A stretch of DNA of 64,000 bases from positions 192 to 64,191 of the forward strand of contig JAGBEY010000016.1 in the NCBI GenBank assembly GCA_017936745.1. Reading direction: 5' to 3'. A model generated the notes under the pieces. The model made no database searches, was not told where the DNA came from, and was given only the letters and a program-made list of their open reading frames with translations. The position numbers and the translations under genes are program-made. The DNA comes from Clostridia bacterium (GTDB lineage: Bacteria; Bacillota; Clostridia; UMGS1840). Of the stretch, positions 5,245 to 52,345 are shown one piece after another. The first letter of the stretch is position 1. The number at the start of each line of letters is the position of its first letter.

Positions 5245-5934
5245 TTATAAAAGAGATTCCAGTTCCCGCAAATCGGAAATTTCGTAAGTAACGGGGATAC
5301 CAAGGGTATTTTCTTCTCCGGTCGGATTATACCAAACAGTATCAATCCCCATATTCAAACCGCCTTGTATATCCGAGGTGAGAGAATCGCCGATGATGAC
5401 TGCCTCTTCTTTGTTAAAGTCCGAAATTTTGGAAAATACAATCTCAAAATAGGCTTTTTCCGGCTTTTGAAATCCGATTTCTTCGGAAATGAAAATGCCG
5501 TCTGCCAATGATTCAAGTCCTGATTTTCTGAGCCTTGGCCACTGCACCTCACGGGTACCGTTGGTGACATAATAAATTTGAAAGCCTTTTTGTTTCAAAC
5601 GAATCAACAGCTTGTCCGCCCCGTCAATTAACTCTGCGATTTTAGAAAGCTCATTACGATAGTAACGGTCAAATGCCACACTGTCTCCCGAAAAACCAAA
5701 TTCCCGGAATAAATCGTCAAATCGTGCCGATAAAAATTTGGACTTCTCGATTTTCCCTTTCTCAAATTCTTCCCAATAGTATTGATTGATGGCTTCATAT
5801 CGGGCACGAATCTGTTCACTGTAGGAAAAGGAAAAATCCTCCAGTGATTTTTTCAGGGCAATTTGTTCAGATTTTTTGAAATCAAGCAGTGTACGGTCTA
5901 CATCAAACAATAAAAAATGTTTATTCAACAGCAA
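5245..5934 (-). CDS. HAD-superfamily hydrolase (subfamily IA, YjjG-like nucleotidase type)
   Basis: The DxDxT motif is present as FDVDRTLLDF. A late GDSLTSDIQGG motif is also present. Confidence 0.8.
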   Translation of the reverse strand: MLLNKHFLLFDVDRTLLDFKKSEQIALKKSLEDFSFSYSEQIRARYEAINQYYWEEFEKGKIEKSKFLSARFDDLFREFGFSGDSVAFDRYYRNELSKIAELIDGADKLLIRLKQKGFQIYYVTNGTREVQWPRLRKSGLESLADGIFISEEIGFQKPEKAYFEIVFSKISDFNKEEAVIIGDSLTSDIQGGLNMGIDTVWYNPTGEENTLGIPVTYEISDLRELESLL

Positions 5935-7867: not shown

Positions 7868-8401
7868 TTACTCCGTGATTGGTTTATTTTTTTCGCATTG
7901 TGAAATTACATTTTGCATTTCTAATATTGCCAGAGTATCAATATCATTTTTTCCGATATCTGTTACACGGTCTGTAAACTGACGCGGAAAAACAGCTCGG
8001 ATTTCCTCTGTATCCCGGGGATAACTTCCCCGTGCCGTCATCACGCCTTGTTCATCGGCAGATACCACCACAACTGCAGGCATTGCATCAATGCCTGCAA
8101 GCTTCGTAAGCTCCCCGTCCTTGTCAGCATATACCCCATAGGATGCCAGCAAATAGAAATAAACATCCCCTGCTTTTTCTTCGTTGCCTAAAATGATATG
8201 CCCGGAAGCAGTATACTCCGATGGTGGAAACTTCCCGTTATAATCACGGAGAATAGTGTCTGCCAGAACAGTATGTACTTCGCGAGGATAATCCTTTAAT
8301 TCTGCTATAGCTGGCGGCTGTTCAACAGAACAAGCTGTGCATAAGAAAAAAATTGCAAACGCCAACATTCCTGACAAAAATGATTTCATTAAATTATCCA
8401 T
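7868..8401 (-). CDS. Hypothetical lipoprotein or exported protein
   Basis: Hydrophobic N-terminus ending FFLCTAC|S, a lipobox-like Cys. Confidence 0.5.
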   Translation of the reverse strand: MDNLMKSFLSGMLAFAIFFLCTACSVEQPPAIAELKDYPREVHTVLADTILRDYNGKFPPSEYTASGHIILGNEEKAGDVYFYLLASYGVYADKDGELTKLAGIDAMPAVVVVSADEQGVMTARGSYPRDTEEIRAVFPRQFTDRVTDIGKNDIDTLAILEMQNVISQCEKNKPITE

Positions 8402-8957
8402 TCTGATGAACCTTACACAGAATGTCGCTTAGTTTTTCATCGTCAATACTGTCCACCACGTCGAACAGCTTCAGAATTTTTTCTCCTGCTGCACCTTGTC
8501 TGATTAAATCGTGCAGCAAAGCAATCAGGCTATCATAGAAACCATCCAGATTCAGAACCACAATGGGAGTATCCATCTGCTGTAAATATTTCAGAGTAAG
8601 AATCTGGAAAAATTCGTCCATTGTTCCGATTCCGCCGGGAGCGATAAGGTATACATCCGCATGCTTTTCCATCAGTGTTTTCCGTTCTGCCATAGTATCC
8701 ACCAAAAGGGTGTTGTCACAATTAAAAATGGTTTCAAATTCACCCATAAAACGCGGAGTGACCCCCATAATATAGCCATCATTTTTTCGGAAGCCTCTGG
8801 CAATTGCCCCCATACAGCCGGTTGCACCTGCTCCATACACTAAGGAAAAGCCTTTTTCTGCTAAGGTTGCTCCTAAGGTTTCGATTGCATTCTTATGAGC
8901 CTCCGAAATTGTTTCTGACGCTCCTCCATATAAACAAACAAAATATTGATGTGACAT
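8394..8957 (-). CDS. LOG family (TIGR00730) nucleotide phosphoribohydrolase
   Basis: Motifs GAGATGCMG and PGGIGTMDEF. Confidence 0.85.
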   Translation of the reverse strand: MSHQYFVCLYGGASETISEAHKNAIETLGATLAEKGFSLVYGAGATGCMGAIARGFRKNDGYIMGVTPRFMGEFETIFNCDNTLLVDTMAERKTLMEKHADVYLIAPGGIGTMDEFFQILTLKYLQQMDTPIVVLNLDGFYDSLIALLHDLIRQGAAGEKILKLFDVVDSIDDEKLSDILCKVHQNG

Positions 8958-9807: not shown

Positions 9808-9972
9808 TGAAATATCAACTTCGTTGATATGAAATAATCCTGACGGATTATGAAATATTTTTCTTTCAGAAAAATGTGAAATAAAATTTGCCTTTTCATA
9901 TTGCGTAGCAATATTTCATACACGGAGTGTATTTCATAGCGAAGCTATTTCACTTGCCAAAGGCAAATTTCA
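9808..9972. repeat. Mirror iteron-hairpin array A (TGAAATA x4, then TATTTCA x4-5)
   Basis: TGAAATA occurs at 9808, 9830, 9851 and 9877. Its reverse complement TATTTCA occurs at 9912, 9930 and 9946, with degenerate copies at 9892 and 9966. Spacers are individual hairpins: 9812-9830 (loop TTC), 9834-9851 (TGAC), 9857-9875 (TTTCA), 9898-9914 (GTA), 9918-9932 (GGA), 9936-9948 (GAA) and 9954-9966 (AAA). Confidence 0.8.
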
Positions 9973-9975
9973 TTG

Positions 9976-10008: not shown

Positions 10009-10084
<76 letters not shown>

Positions 10085-26523: not shown

Positions 26524-27885
<1,362 letters not shown>

Positions 27886-48178: not shown

Positions 48179-48358
48179 ATTCTTCTCCTTAGCGATGCTA
48201 ATTTCGGGTTTGCTTTTCCCGACACATTTTATGGTGATAAAAAATCGAATGAACGGTATATTCTTTTATTTATAATTTCTCCGGCTCTTCGAGCTACCTT
48301 CCTTTACAGAAGGGTGGCTTTTTAGTTTTTCAAAATTCGACCTTGCGACACATAAGGT

Positions 48359-48868
48359 TTAAATGCAACTTGCTTTGTCAATATAATCTTCCAAATTTTG
48401 ACTATACGGAAAGCATCGCATAAAAGAACTTACTAATTCTTTATCTTCGCTTAAAATCAAAGTCAATGAACTGTCCCAAGGCACAATTTCTATCTTTGAT
48501 AAAGGATGTTGAAGTGTTAGCGGTTTGTTCCAGAATCCTGTATATCCATTTGCATAAGGCAAATCATATTTTAAAATATCAGCTAATTCAACACTTTTAT
48601 CAAATCCTGACAACACAGCCCATATCCATTGAAAATCTTCCTGATTGACCATTTCAGTTAATTCTTCACCTGATAACCAACAATATTCTTTGTCTAATAA
48701 TTCTTTTATTTTTTGATTATTGGGATAACATTCACAATCTGTTATTAACCAGTTGTATTCTTTTTGCTTATTACCAATCGCATCAAATATTTTTTTCAAA
48801 TATGTATAATACTTTTCGCCTTTTTCGTTAATTGCTCCATAAACCACATAATCACTTCCTTTCGACAT
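48359..48868 (-). CDS. Orphan small cytoplasmic protein (cassette 1)
   Basis: The ORF reads MSKGSDYVVYGAINEKGEKYY...NWLITDCECYP...FQWIWAVLSGF... By analogy with cassette 2, the true start may be the GTG at 48847, 7 nt after AAAGGAAG. Confidence 0.55.
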   Translation of the reverse strand: MSKGSDYVVYGAINEKGEKYYTYLKKIFDAIGNKQKEYNWLITDCECYPNNQKIKELLDKEYCWLSGEELTEMVNQEDFQWIWAVLSGFDKSVELADILKYDLPYANGYTGFWNKPLTLQHPLSKIEIVPWDSSLTLILSEDKELVSSFMRCFPYSQNLEDYIDKASCI

Positions 48869-48899
48869 TTTTCGACATATCCATATAACTCGTGTCAAG
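48857..48899 (-). promoter_or_regulatory. Conserved 43-nt leader with two tandem perfect Spo0A boxes (cassette 1)
   Basis: The minus strand reads CTTGACACGAGTTATATGGATATGTCGAAAAATGTCGAAAGGA. TGTCGAA lies at 48877-48871 and 48867-48861 with a 10-bp register. The second box abuts the SD. Confidence 0.6.
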
Positions 48900-49105: not shown

Positions 49106-49687
49106 TTACTTATATGAGTTTTCTATCTGTTTTGAATACTCCCATTTTATTATACGAATATTATATCTTTCCAAGGCTTCATCAGCAGTAAATGCACTAT
49201 AACCCTTTTTCCCTTCTGGAGTAATGTATAAATAGTCAATCATATTGTCTTCTTCCGGTAAACGATTAAAATAACTATCAGGATCATTCATATAATACTC
49301 AGCATGTCCTGGATAAGAGCACAATTCTAAAACCTGATTACCCCAATCCGTGAAATCATTTTCATTGCTTAAATCTTTTAGACTAATCATCTCTTTTCCT
49401 GTACTTTTTATATACAATTTCCATTTTCGTTCTTTGCTACCACTATTAGTCCATTCAATACCATCATATTCGCATATAACTACATCTTCAATGGTTTTTA
49501 TTTCACCATCAAGCTCATATGTTAAAACAAACGGAAATTCGCCGTATGTAATTTCTGGTTCTGGCGGATTAGGTGCAAAATATGTAAGCATCAAAAATGC
49601 ACCTGAAATAACAAATAGATAAAACAAAGCGATTAACACACAGGCTACCGCTCCAATAATACCCGTTATAACCAATGTTTTTTTCAT
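49106..49687 (-). CDS. Orphan small membrane-anchored protein (cassette 2)
   Basis: MKKTLVITGIIGAVACVLIALFYLFVISGAFLMLTYF (one or two TM helices), then a soluble domain. ATG follows AAAGGAG. Confidence 0.6.
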   Translation of the reverse strand: MKKTLVITGIIGAVACVLIALFYLFVISGAFLMLTYFAPNPPEPEITYGEFPFVLTYELDGEIKTIEDVVICEYDGIEWTNSGSKERKWKLYIKSTGKEMISLKDLSNENDFTDWGNQVLELCSYPGHAEYYMNDPDSYFNRLPEEDNMIDYLYITPEGKKGYSAFTADEALERYNIRIIKWEYSKQIENSYK

Positions 49688-49694
49688 ATTTTAC

Positions 49695-49737
49695 TCCTTT
49701 CGACATTATTCGACATATCCATATTACTCGTGTCAAG
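49695..49737 (-). promoter_or_regulatory. Conserved 43-nt leader with two tandem perfect Spo0A boxes (cassette 2)
   Basis: The minus strand reads CTTGACACGAGTAATATGGATATGTCGAATAATGTCGAAAGGA, 41/43 identical to 48857-48899. TGTCGAA lies at 49715-49709 and 49705-49699. Confidence 0.6.
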
Positions 49738-49755
49738 ACTGGATAAAAATTCAAT

Positions 49756-49793
49756 ATGATATAATGATTTCAACTCTTATGAAATCATTATAT
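49756..49793. promoter_or_regulatory. 14-bp-stem hairpin built from two copies of the ATATAATGATTTCA module; contains an extended -10 on each strand
   Basis: atataatgatttca (49759-49772), actctta, then tgaaatcattatat (49780-49793). The plus strand reads TGaTATAAT at 49757-49765. The minus strand reads TATATAAT at 49793-49786. Confidence 0.5.
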
Positions 49794-49824
49794 AATTAGG
49801 TGACAGAAAAGATGCACCTTGTTG

Positions 49825-49996
49825 TCGATATGCAAACTTCGTTTGCTCGATATTTTTGCTACCGCAAAATCGATATGTTTTCGCTATGCTCAAACTCGAT
49901 ATGATATGAATTCTTGTCGCGTTAGCGACATATCGAGTGCGACAGCACATATCGAGTCCGCAAGACATATCGAGAATTCGTCAGAATTCATATCGA
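49825..49996. repeat. Mirror iteron-hairpin array B (TCGATAT x4, then ATATCGA x4)
   Basis: TCGATAT occurs at 49825, 49847, 49870 and 49896. ATATCGA occurs at 49930, 49949, 49967 and 49990. Spacer hairpins: 49832-49846 (loop TTC), 49854-49869 (TACC), 49915-49930 (GTTA), 49937-49948 (GACA), 49956-49966 (weak) and 49974-49989 (GTCA). A further hairpin, aagc-ttc-gctt, lies at 50004-50014. Confidence 0.8.
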
Positions 49997-50020
49997 CGAT
50001 TTCAAGCTTCGCTTAAAATC

Positions 50021-50049
50021 ATTATATCATACCAAAATCAAAATAGCAA
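50021..50049 (-). promoter_or_regulatory. Strong sigma-A-type promoter firing leftward into array B
   Basis: The minus strand reads TTGCTA (50049-50044), a 17-nt spacer that ends in TGa, then TATAAT (50026-50021). TATAATGATTTT is identical to the -10 and discriminator of the gdhA promoter in this window. Confidence 0.65.
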
Positions 50050-50074
50050 TGTTTTTCCCGAAAATAACCATATA

Positions 50075-50108
50075 CAAAAAAACAGAGAGACGTGCTCTCT
50101 GTTTTTTT
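50075..50108. terminator. Terminator of the 50111-52345 SLH gene (bidirectional)
   Basis: aacagagag-acgtg-ctctctgtt is flanked by A7 and T7. Confidence 0.8.
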
Positions 50109-50110
50109 CG

Positions 50111-52345
50111 TTAATTCGGTTTTTTTACCGCAACCAGCACACGGATTCTTCCGCCTGCAGATTGCGATTTATCGTAATAAGCATGTATGGTGTAGCTGTC
50201 CTGCTGCTCCATCAAATCATCTTTTGCCATTTTTAAATACTGATAATCGGCATTTTTCTGATACACCACAACTCTGTCACTCATCAGATATTCGGTATCG
50301 TTGCACACAACACTAAAGTCGTTAATCTGGCTGACCGGGCTACTGATTTTAAACAGTGATGTAATACTGTCAATGGTGTTTCCCGAAAATACAAACCGCG
50401 CAGGAGCTCCGGTGGACACCGAGGTGAAAATAGAGCCGTTCATGGTGGTGGTATTGCCGTCAATATCGTAGGTGTAGGTTCTCATATTGGAGCGCTCGTT
50501 ATATTCGGAGGCATAGGTGACAATGCCGTATTTATGGGCGTCTCCCGTTACATTATGCAAAAAGAGAGTATCAATTTCTCCGGCTTGGTTTTTTTCCGAA
50601 TATAGCACCGAGGAGGCAGACAGGTTCATTCCATCAAGACGCTGGGGATAGATTTTTACATAACTGCCGGTTTCCAGTTTGTCAATTGTGGAGACATCCA
50701 AAATGGAAACCTCCTCTGCCAGCCGGTGGTTTCCGATGGTTTTTGTGTCATAATCAACTGTTCCGCTGACAGAAGAAGCTGTATTCAAGGTGTTCAGCTT
50801 TACTTTCTGATTTTGAAAAGAAAGTTTTACAATTTTATTCTTGCTTGCAGAATAATCAGAAGATGTGGGATATTCCAACACTTCTCCGGATGCAGTAACA
50901 AGGGAAATATAATTGGAGGAATATTCACTGCCGTCTCCGTTTTGGAAGGTTTTCTTTCCCGTTGCCTGAAGATATCCCACAACAGAATCAGGAGTGCCGC
51001 TGAGGACATCCGCAATTTTTCCGTCTCTGCCTAAAAGCACAGTCACCGAATCACCCAGCTTCACAGTTCCTTTAGAGGAAAGCTTATAAAAGGCTTCTGC
51101 CCCCTCCAATGCATAGGTCGTGCCGGAAATCACTACCGAAGTGGGATTATCCCGATTGGGGGATGCACTTTCGTACACACCGGATACCTTTTTGGAATAT
51201 GCCCAAACGGTATTGAGCTTTTCGGAATAGTATAAAATATCATTGAGTTCATATCCGGTTGCCTGAGAACCGTTTCGGATAAAGGTGGTGTTTTCGTCTG
51301 TCTGTACCACTGTTTTTGAGGTAGCGGTAACCGGACCTTTTAACAAGTCGGTGGAAAGCACACCGTAATCGGTAACCATATCCATGGTTTTATAAATTTT
51401 CAAGGTATCGCCGATAGAAATACTTGCCAGAGAGTTTTTCAGACTGGTGGTTTGAGATTTGTTATATACCGTCAGATTTTTGTCAACAGAAAGGGATTTC
51501 AGCGTTCCGTTTTGCGAAACAACAATATCATCATCCAAAACCTGATAAACCAGATATTCTTCAACATATTGATTGGAGGGAATAAAGCCTACTGCCTCAT
51601 TGGCATTTTTTAAAATCAAATCTCCTTTTTTTCCAACAGCATCTTCCAGTGTAAGTGAAGTTCTGTAATTGCCGGAGGTGGTGTTGACTCTGCCGCTTCC
51701 CACCGAGGTATCCGTAAGCGGTGTACCGAGAATAATCACATCCTCCAGAATTTTATAGTTCAGAGTTTCAATATAATGAGCAGTGCTGTTTTTTGGTTCC
51801 GTATTCAAAAGGTTATAGGTAAGATACGCCACATCACGACGGGTCATCAACTCACCGATGGATTTCTCCAATCCTTCCGTTAAGCCGCAATTGATTGCCA
51901 GTCCAACCTGACCGTAGGGCCAGGAGCTTCCGAAATCGGTATCATCATACCCTAAAAGCTTTAAGAATACATTCAGTGCTTCCTCATAGAGCACAGTGTT
52001 GTCCGGCTGAAAGGAGCTGTCCGGATATCCTGTTACCAGCTTATGGTCACTGGCTAACTTGATATAAGGTGACGCCCAATGCTGATGGGTCACATCCTTA
52101 AATGGTGATATTTTCAAATTCAGTGCCACTGTATTTTTATGTTTGGAGGCAGTAATGGCAATTTTTGCAAACTCTGCACGGGAAACATAATCGTCCAGAC
52201 GAAGATTGCCGTCGGTGTCTCCCTGCATAATTTTCATTTCTCCCAGAAGCGGAAGAATGTTGGTTTGTAATTCCTCTGCAGATACGGGCAAGGTAACCAG
52301 TAGGGCACAGAGTAATAATAGAATTATTTTTTTCATTGGTTTCAA
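50111..52345 (-). CDS. Large SLH-domain surface protein (N-terminal SLH repeats)
   Basis: Signal peptide MKKIILLLLCALLVTLPVSA. SLH repeats read DDYVSRAEFAKIAI... and FKDVTHQHWASPYIKLASDHKLVTGYPDSSFQPDN. A long beta-rich C-terminal region follows. Confidence 0.8.
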   Translation of the reverse strand: MKPMKKIILLLLCALLVTLPVSAEELQTNILPLLGEMKIMQGDTDGNLRLDDYVSRAEFAKIAITASKHKNTVALNLKISPFKDVTHQHWASPYIKLASDHKLVTGYPDSSFQPDNTVLYEEALNVFLKLLGYDDTDFGSSWPYGQVGLAINCGLTEGLEKSIGELMTRRDVAYLTYNLLNTEPKNSTAHYIETLNYKILEDVIILGTPLTDTSVGSGRVNTTSGNYRTSLTLEDAVGKKGDLILKNANEAVGFIPSNQYVEEYLVYQVLDDDIVVSQNGTLKSLSVDKNLTVYNKSQTTSLKNSLASISIGDTLKIYKTMDMVTDYGVLSTDLLKGPVTATSKTVVQTDENTTFIRNGSQATGYELNDILYYSEKLNTVWAYSKKVSGVYESASPNRDNPTSVVISGTTYALEGAEAFYKLSSKGTVKLGDSVTVLLGRDGKIADVLSGTPDSVVGYLQATGKKTFQNGDGSEYSSNYISLVTASGEVLEYPTSSDYSASKNKIVKLSFQNQKVKLNTLNTASSVSGTVDYDTKTIGNHRLAEEVSILDVSTIDKLETGSYVKIYPQRLDGMNLSASSVLYSEKNQAGEIDTLFLHNVTGDAHKYGIVTYASEYNERSNMRTYTYDIDGNTTTMNGSIFTSVSTGAPARFVFSGNTIDSITSLFKISSPVSQINDFSVVCNDTEYLMSDRVVVYQKNADYQYLKMAKDDLMEQQDSYTIHAYYDKSQSAGGRIRVLVAVKKPN

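Follow-up and report, generated by a model that had tools for sequence, protein, structure and literature searches.

An interspersed, structure-conserved intergenic repeat of gut Clostridia and phages, examined from one chromosomal copy

Repetitive extragenic palindromic (REP) sequences, bacterial interspersed mosaic elements (BIMEs) and Correia repeats are well studied in Proteobacteria; to our knowledge, little has been learned of interspersed structured repeats in gut Clostridia, the anaerobes dominating animal microbiomes. Here, we analysed a stretch of 64,000 nt from contig JAGBEY010000016.1 of a Clostridia bacterium (hereafter, the window) and, within it, an array of short inverted motifs lying in a 423-nt spacer between two minus-strand genes. 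We show that this array, which an earlier note on the same DNA called Array B, belongs to a family of intergenic repeats that is interspersed among gut Clostridia and some of their phages and is conserved in structure. The note had read the region as a self-contained module rather than random spacer, and membership in a large interspersed family bears this out. The anatomy of the element is unusually rich, regular and testable, with eight invariant heptamers, eight covarying hairpins and a long-range helix that is mutually exclusive with one of them.

The REP, BIME and REPIN (REP doublet forming hairpin) sequences of Enterobacteria and Pseudomonas, linked to RAYTs (REP-associated tyrosine transposases), are multi-copy extragenic palindromes in inverted arrangement that lie mostly after or between co-directional or convergent genes, are co-transcribed with their neighbours, carry a short conserved motif beside the hairpin, and are persistent and vertically inherited (PMC3116915, PMC2817692, PMC6006769). 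The present element is likewise extragenic and multi-copy, with palindromic units in inverted orientation. However, its motif is the heptamer TCGATAT instead of a GTAG (GTGG) tetranucleotide 5' of a hairpin shared by the copies, and it carries eight units per element instead of one or two. Its hairpin sequences differ within and between copies, pairing alone being kept, and an extra long-range helix is present. Furthermore, the hosts are Clostridia, and the surroundings of the copies yielded no RAYT gene (~3.5 kb to either side of ~110 copies, which is also the scope of the other searches for nearby enzyme genes below).

Two other systems invite comparison. Correia elements (Correia repeat enclosed elements of Neisseria) are bounded by terminal inverted repeats of 26 bp and also feature an IHF site and a TA duplication. 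They resemble the present family as short interspersed inverted-repeat elements within transcripts, with promoters possible at their ends and a long RNA hairpin, whereas the present family has no family-wide terminal inverted repeat or clean duplication and its promoter, where present, is that of the host. Integron attC sites share the preservation of structure over sequence, short inverted cores, a position after the preceding stop codon in one orientation, and folding as a single strand. In contrast to the one imperfect hairpin of attC, there are eight motifs and eight hairpins here, and no gene-attC arrays. An attC identity was rejected, as the cores RYYYAAC/GTTRRRY are absent from the consensus and no integrase is found among the recurrent neighbours.

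Distribution and conserved structure of the family

A pattern taken from the centre of the array matched at least 120 stretches in a one-genome-per-species collection, nearly all of them in metagenome-assembled genomes (MAGs) of gut Clostridia. The hosts belong to Oscillospiraceae, Acutalibacteraceae, Faecousia, Fimenecus and unclassified Eubacteriales. The family is widespread, with at least about 95 species-level assemblies carrying the element (counted by accession prefix), 17 of which have 2-3 loci. Phage contigs of three types in IMG/VR carry it as well: in L026/L126 it separates a Rep gene from terS; in L047/L124, a family-less gene just downstream of portal from a capsid-like gene; and in L040, terL from portal. 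In most copies the core, measured from first to last heptamer, spans 172-177 nt and, in the plus-strand orientation of the window, is preceded by TTTTG and followed by one further variable hairpin. A metagenome scan for the promoter-bearing subfamily described below returned 2 contigs. Two Logan contigs of the same strain (L002 and L003) both end inside the array, at columns 212 and 253 of alignment A1, which suggests that the element breaks short-read assemblies.

No Rfam family matched the element, either at gathering thresholds over the whole window or at E up to 10 on 49650-50150, where chance microRNA-type matches of at most 17 bits were returned. Comparison of the element with INPHARED phages and PLSDB plasmids by blastn gave no match. 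No published description was found by full-text motif search, which returned primer noise, or in the literature on REP/RAYT in Clostridia and on structured RNAs in Oscillospiraceae, and the element is apparently undescribed. Viral contigs retrieved with a simple triple-TCGATAT pattern were mostly unrelated tandem or coding repeats and were rejected as family members. The phage arrays at L135 3510-3700, L147 135-300 and L155 43-205 were also set aside; there, TCGATAT/ATATCGA is interleaved with GGGACA/TGTCCC, and they do not belong to this family.

In the window copy, eight exact TCGATAT heptamers fall within 172 nt, four on the plus strand (49825, 49847, 49870 and 49896) and four on the minus strand (49930, 49949, 49967 and 49990). 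The whole window holds 15 such sites against 7.4 expected, with no other array of this kind. Read on the minus strand, the unit consists of a terminal hairpin (hpR4), four TCGATAT heptamers each with a short hairpin behind it, the central hairpin, a segment that we call X, and four ATATCGA heptamers split by three hairpins (Table 1). The spacers are distinct palindromes: GCAAAC-TTC-GTTTGC, TTTTGC-TACC-GCAAAA, GTGC-GACA-GCAC, GTC-CGCAA-GAC, GAATTC-GTCA-GAATTC and, at the centre, GTCGC-GTTA-GCGAC. On the side away from the promoter, an AGATGC-loop hairpin and TTTTG are shared among the left-flank classes of other copies, TTTTG standing in most of them where the window has TTGTTG. The region folds better than shuffled sequence on both strands (z = -7.2 and -8.4).

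Structure conservation was assessed in 48 distinct canonical copies chosen for exact heptamers, so that the invariance of the heptamers within this set is by selection. Every spacer forms a stem in these copies, with 15-38 different stem sequences per position, and most copies have a hairpin after the last heptamer, for which 38 distinct stem sequences were counted among the 48. Across the eight local hairpins of alignment A2, 85% of cells are paired and 43 of 46 pairs have changed on both sides (413 cells). None of 500 shuffles reached the observed pairing, and partner columns that had been slid were 30-45% paired. The central hairpin alone has 82% of its cells paired and changes on both sides in 4 of its 5 pairs. 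Overall, the block is under selection for pairing: heptamers are invariant, and stems are free to vary yet remain paired.

A long-range helix (window 49983-94 with 49903-14) is 99.4% paired in the 48 copies, with 6 covarying pairs (0/500 shuffles). Its support is as good as that of the local hairpins. On one side it uses GATAT of the outermost heptamer together with one half of the neighbouring hairpin; on the other side, next to the centre, stands a copy of that hairpin's second half. This helix and the local hairpin share a strand; therefore, the family keeps a three-way complementarity, which is the apparent signature of two alternative folds. ViennaRNA and RNAalifold also predict that the heptamers of both arms pair into a ladder. 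Covariation does not speak for this arm-to-arm ladder, since the motifs never vary and the pairs that close the local hairpins account just as well for the flanking covariation. On the ATATCGA strand, loops of the GNA/GNNA type occur in both arms (GAA, GTCA, GCAA, GTAA and GACA), and GCGAAGC is present in one 3'-arm hairpin in most copies of alignment A2.

As a separate observation, every heptamer in one of the arms has changed at two loci of one MAG (SVJM; L223 and L230). ATATCGC (GCGATAT on the other strand) stands at six of these sites and a bare ATATC at two, the opposite arm keeping ATATCGA (one ATATCAC in one L223 copy). Genome-specific heptamer variants were considered as a sign of a co-evolving reader and dropped, because a further locus of the same MAG (L290) is canonical.

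Table 1. Features of the window copy and its surroundings (window positions; strand left empty where none is assigned).
Feature	Position	Strand	Description
193-aa gene, no family assigned	49106-49687	-	Downstream neighbour of the element (the "cassette gene")
Upstream motif of the 193-aa gene	49694-49737	-	CTTGACACGAG...TGTCGAA-N3-TGTCGAA-AGGAG; not part of the element
AT-rich palindrome (left and third copies of TGATATAATGATTT)	49756-49796		17-bp stem, 7-nt loop; repeat finder and alignment by eye
Flank module	49798-49824		Hairpin AGGTGACAGAAAAGATGCACC, AGATGC loop, and TTGTTG; adjoins the array away from the promoter
Array core	49825-49996	-	Minus strand: TCGATAT x4 (5' arm), central hairpin, ATATCGA x4 (3' arm)
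Segment X	49903-49914		GATATGAATTCT; complementary to 49983-49994 (12 nt, 100%, repeat finder)
Central hairpin	49916-49929		GTCGC-GTTA-GCGAC; helix 6 of the covariation test
Partner of segment X	49983-49994		AGAATTCATATC; outermost heptamer and half of the adjacent hairpin
Terminal hairpin hpR4	49998-50020	-	GATTTTAAGC-GAA-GCTTGAAATC; directly abuts the -10 box
Host sigma-A-type promoter (right copy)	50021-50049	-	TTGCTA 50049-50044, 17 nt, TG 50029-50028, TATAAT 50026-50021
Intrinsic terminator of the SLH-domain gene	50076-50108	-	Repeat finder; 14-bp stem, A/T runs on both sides
SLH-domain protein gene	50111-52345	-	Upstream neighbour of the element

Host promoter, probable transcribed strand and gain by insertion

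The earlier note had drawn attention to three copies of a module around TGATATAATGATTT that bracket the array, two of which form a hairpin. This arrangement is real. Pattern search placed TGATATAATGATTT exactly at 49757-49770 (plus strand, the left copy) and 50016-50029 (minus strand, the right copy) and with one mismatch at 49782-49795 (minus strand, the third copy). With up to 2 mismatches, 6 matches occur in the window against 1.35 expected, a number reached in 0 of 100 shuffles. The repeat finder returned the outer inverted repeat (49755-49773 / 50013-50031; 19 nt, 95% complementary), the hairpin (49756-49772 / 49780-49796; 17 nt, 94%, 7-nt loop) and a direct repeat that had not been mentioned (49782-49796 / 50016-50030; 15 nt, 93%). 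All three copies hold TATAAT, and TG is present in two of them, not in the third.

The right copy, proposed as a minus-strand promoter, is supported as one by a promoter scan (10/12 matches plus TG), by its retention at related loci and by its recurrence across the family. Its -10 box and discriminator also match, as had been claimed, the sequence upstream of gdhA (TATAATGATTTT at 27970-27959, minus strand), the open reading frame (ORF) behind which encodes a Glu/Leu/Phe/Val dehydrogenase (26524-27879, minus strand). In four relatives with an orthologous SLH locus (SLH proteins of 81%, 77%, 72% and 61% identity), the array is absent from all four and the promoter is kept in three, followed by different sequence and genes. 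Specifically, L310 and L311 read TTGCTA-N17-TGATATAAT right after the SLH-gene terminator, and L312 has the variant TTGCTA-N17-TTATACT. That terminator lies outside the element and closes the upstream transcription unit, and L310-L312 have an equivalent. Because the array-less loci keep the promoter, the right module can be taken as a true promoter of the host, with the element starting just after its -10 box. The comparison of these loci shows that the window copy arose by insertion, or by replacement, immediately downstream of the -10 box in a promoter that was already there. A similar contrast, with both flanks conserved, is seen in phages: L040 is the only one of 77 portal relatives to have an array between terL and portal, and in three of its closest relatives (L315, L317 and L318; 55-59% identity) the terL stop runs directly into the ribosome-binding site (RBS) of portal.

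In the subfamily to which the window belongs, the terminal hairpin GATTTCA...TGAAATC directly abuts TATAAT. All 16 aligned members of this subfamily have TTGnnn ~17 nt from a TATAAT-like -10 box directly before the element, most of them with TG, and their spacers are unrelated. Across the family, 92 distinct copies were scanned on the terminal-hairpin side, and 17 of them have a strong inward promoter of the sigma-70 type. Its spacer is 17 nt in every case, and in 14 of these 17 the -10 box ends 22-24 nt before the first heptamer. Inward promoters on the other flank (3/91) are as rare as the outward-reading controls (1/92 and 2/91).

Three independent lines point to the minus strand of the window as the putative folded and transcribed strand. 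Of the genes on the hpR4 side, 79 read toward the element and 24 read away, and in many copies the stop codon of this gene lies at most 25 nt from the terminal hairpin. Folded as the minus strand, the hairpins contain 41 G:U pairs, compared with 12 as the plus strand, and their summed energies are -1896 versus -1738 kcal/mol. The direction of the promoters is the third line. Here, we show that the element sits where it would be transcribed in one orientation: after stop codons, between operon genes (those of phage late regions among them) or immediately following a promoter. The window promoter would transcribe the element on the minus strand from a start near 50014, giving an RNA of ~270 nt that might be the leader of the 193-aa gene or a separate small RNA, and that could end around the AT-rich palindrome or continue into the 193-aa gene. 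The minus-strand RNA from this predicted start has a folding z of -5.8. A half-element in L392 (about 8250-8470, minus strand), consisting of promoter, terminal hairpin, four TCGATAT units and central hairpin, runs directly into the RBS of a small gene (its protein starts MDQFNETMKINNF) as its 5' leader, which shows that the 5' arm alone can persist as a promoter-driven leader.

The palindrome at 49756-49796 is a diverged second copy (~33 nt) of the promoter-proximal -10/hpR4 junction (50027-49998 aligned by eye with 49793-49767). The duplicated junction reads ATATAATGATTT followed by a GATTTCA-type hairpin, an arrangement that is also found in L196. Since ATTATATAAT is self-complementary, the duplicated junction grows into a palindrome of 17 bp. 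Thus, one TGATATAATGATTT copy is the promoter -10 box plus the first stem of the terminal hairpin, and the other two are, on this alignment, the palindromic duplicate of the junction. We also considered the hairpin on the minus strand as an intrinsic terminator and rejected it, since the terminator scan did not call it and it has an A/T-rich stem with two C-G pairs and the tail AUUGAAUUUUUAU.

Repeated ends are not confined to the window. A TATAAT direct repeat is found at both ends in the window, L241, L231, L253 and L292, the repeat length ranging from 6 to ~33 nt. It is ~31-33 nt in the window and L196, and a different module of 29 nt is repeated in L305 and L259. Partial second copies of flank modules, in differing phases, occur in L199, L305, L259, L213 and the window, and the array at L040 1400-1600 (same contig as L314) is circularly permuted, with ATATCGA x4 followed by three TCGATAT and one GAGATAT. 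No duplication is visible at the L040 insert, and no clean element ends could be defined. The earlier note had named a recognisable miniature inverted-repeat transposable element (MITE) as one finding that would overturn its model. Multiple interspersed copies and empty orthologous sites in relatives are indeed what we find, but the family has neither terminal inverted repeats bounding a family-wide unit nor a clean target-site duplication, and the other subfamilies end in a variable hairpin and TTTTG; the element is therefore not a recognisable MITE. The 19-nt inverted repeat of the window is not MITE-like, because it is made of the host -10/hpR4 junction and its duplicate. No autonomous version with its arms split by genes was present among the fetched loci.

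Proposed function and competing explanations

We favour, with moderate confidence, the explanation that the element is a REP/BIME-like mobile intergenic RNA structure, with a host promoter in front in some copies, that acts within transcripts. By analogy, a mobile block of stable hairpins would work like REP/BIME or Correia elements, shielding flanking mRNA ends from exonucleases or serving as a processing or protein-binding site, and the invariant heptamers would be read by some factor, either a copying enzyme or an RNA- or DNA-binding protein. Several points weigh against this explanation. The transcription start, the RNA end and the RNA stability are all inferred. The predicted start lies within the 5' stem of hpR4; therefore, in the promoter-bearing subfamily the RNA would not contain this hairpin in full. 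G:U pairs are rare on the favoured strand too, at 1.9% of pairs, and 23% of copies are in the opposite orientation to the adjacent gene. A simple exonuclease barrier does not account for the near-perfect two-fold symmetry and the invariance of the heptamers. As for mobility, the family has no clean terminal inverted repeats or target-site duplications, and no transposase, recombinase or reverse transcriptase is linked to the examined copies. Finally, loops of the d(GNA) and d(GNNA) types, GCGAAGC included, have unusual stability as DNA, which makes a single-stranded DNA form conceivable.

A single-stranded DNA mechanism is the main rival because symmetry, heptamer invariance, scarcity of G:U pairs and GNA/GNNA loops are left unexplained by an RNA acting within transcripts. 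In this alternative, which we consider rather unlikely, the element resembles a REPIN or a derivative of IS200/IS605; hairpins fold on the lagging-strand template, heptamers beside the hairpins are recognition or cleavage sites of an HUH/Y1 enzyme whose gene lies elsewhere in the genome, and transcription is incidental. The almost purely Watson-Crick stems (12-41 G:U among ~2,100 pairs), the GNA/GNNA loops in both arms with GCGAAGC in most copies, and the insertion polymorphism in a phage and in the lineage of the window would all fit. The circular permutation of L040 and the variable-phase flank modules of L199, L305, L259 and the window suggest a circular or rolling intermediate, the L026 element abuts a rolling-circle Rep gene (REP_ORF2-G2P), and the orientation bias could equally follow replication direction. 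However, no Y1/HUH gene recurs within 3.5 kb of the ~110 copies, and the frequent location at most 25 nt from a stop codon or behind a complete promoter argues for transcripts rather than replication forks. Unlike in known REP/RAYT pairs, the eight hairpins of one element all differ, and orthologous copies between a rumA-like gene and a PF05635 gene (L218, L219, L227, L237 and L274) carry compensated changes, which argues for selection in place. Another idea, which we offer tentatively and rank well below our favoured explanation, is a new class of mobile structure that lands just after -10 boxes or stop codons. Its copying would pass through an intermediate of DNA or RNA, circular or rolling, and the enzyme would need no more than the heptamer and any hairpin for recognition. 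The heptamers and the three-way covarying switch would then be working parts of the copying or of an RNA-protein machine, and the gene of the PF05635 family (Avd-like, 23S-rRNA-IVS-type; IVS, intervening sequence) that lies 15-18 nt after ~8% of copies would be the partner.

A trans-acting small RNA or an RNA derived from a 3' untranslated region that titrates a protein, and a protein-binding array in duplex DNA, are both less likely than the single-stranded DNA mechanism. The titrating RNA, which seems to us improbable, would offer eight UCGAUAU and/or AUAUCGA sites between hairpins in the manner of CsrB or RsmY/Z, with which the element shares a short motif repeated many times among hairpins, several paralogues per genome and own promoters in some copies (17/92). 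Invariant repeated motifs split by variable hairpins would suit such a sponge, and copies in phage late regions could hijack a host factor. Against this, an RNA-binding protein would read one sequence, and the element presents a motif plus its reverse complement in two arms that can pair together and hide the motifs; most copies are embedded between the genes of operons and lack both a promoter and a terminator of their own, and there is no known candidate for the protein. For the duplex array, of operator, centromere or nucleoid-protein type, the two inverted sets of an invariant 7-bp motif would be natural for a symmetric DNA-binding oligomer, and short motif clusters in two sets around a centre beside a promoter (as in the window and 17 copies) recall P1 parS box A and R1 parC iterons. 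Those are, in contrast, single-copy plasmid sites with phased repeats and no hairpin covariation, whereas here many copies lie on chromosomes and the motif spacing is irregular (18-26 bp in the window; spacers of 7-32 nt in the family at large), with no helical phasing. Furthermore, binding to a duplex would give the hairpins of the spacers, all of which covary, nothing to do, G:U pairs are asymmetric between strands, and most copies follow stop codons rather than promoters, leaving this alternative very unlikely.

The least supported model, and by our judgement a highly improbable one, is that of the earlier note, in which three extended -10 promoters yield convergent, complementary sense and antisense RNAs and the third copy drives the cassette gene. 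TATAAT in all three copies, TG in two and the real promoter at the right copy speak for it, and extended -10 promoters can work without a -35 box. Nevertheless, the left copy has no -35 box at 16-18 nt and no family support as a plus-strand promoter, and the third copy has neither a -35 box nor TG; the hexamers at -35 distance, read from the sequence, are GACTGG and GCATCT. At these two copies the promoter scan listed no site using TATAAT as -10, its sole entry being a weak 9/12 TTCATA-16-TATCAT on the minus strand. The convergent transcription has no comparative support, given the control-like frequency of inward promoters on the left flank, the left pair is the duplicated junction described above, and the cassette gene has its own conserved upstream motif. 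The window array is not to be taken as a locus-specific regulator of that gene. More generally, the element can pass for regulatory sites or spurious small ORFs, genes next to it come to lie before or after a fold of high stability in RNA or DNA, and it opens questions about the reader of the heptamer, the mode of movement and the effect on neighbouring genes.

Neighbouring genes and minor observations

The genes flanking the copies are diverse and mostly housekeeping, and no enzyme gene recurs among them. Recurrent neighbours are limited to a gene of the PF05635 family and a rumA-like methyltransferase gene, the latter at a single orthologous locus. PF05635 is the family of the 23S rRNA intervening-sequence protein, a four-helix bundle; its gene starts 15-18 nt after the array at about nine loci (L218, L219, L227, L232, L235, L236, L237, L274 and L279), and a homologue is found near 12 of ~120 loci, with none in the window. 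In five species, the array lies between the rumA-like methyltransferase gene and the PF05635 gene.

The upstream motif of the 193-aa gene belongs to a 44-nt motif (CTTGACACGAG..ATATGGATATGTCGAA-N3-TGTCGAAAGGA) with two tandem TGTCGAA boxes that occurs twice on the minus strand of the window, at 48856-48899 and at the position given in Table 1. Each occurrence stands before a small gene, one of them the DUF2691 gene and the other the 193-aa gene, which are unrelated to each other and lie in a low-GC stretch (33-34% GC, 48-50 kb). A related motif stands before a 128-aa gene in L310 (~5465-5510), and fragments flank arrays in L228, L213, L281 and L287. The 44-nt motif looks like a shared promoter or leader for variable cassette genes.

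Downstream of the SLH gene (window 50111; L309-L313), the content differs in every relative, and the upstream ABC-transporter/HlyD/SLH block is conserved. The relatives carry DUF6198, GtrA and others, a 128-aa cassette gene and an amylase gene, NfeD, and GFO_IDH (one each). On these gene contents, the region downstream of the SLH gene is a local hot spot of gene turnover. At the position of the array in L310, between the promoter and the cassette gene, ~200 nt (5290-5470) carry no annotation and are apparently structured, with a terminator-like hairpin at the end; this stretch has no Rfam match.

A solo AGATGC-loop flank module (ACATAAGGTTTAAATGCAAC) was found at 48338-48375 on the plus strand, with 2 mismatches to the array-adjoining form in L228 and L259. 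It overlaps the 3' end of the DUF2691 ORF and has no array attached. Elsewhere in the window, a Gut-1 RNA (RF01706, 56.4 bits against a gathering score of 50) adjoins a tRNA gene (9908-9975 and 10012-10084 for the pair, both on the minus strand), which fits an origin of the window in gut Clostridia.

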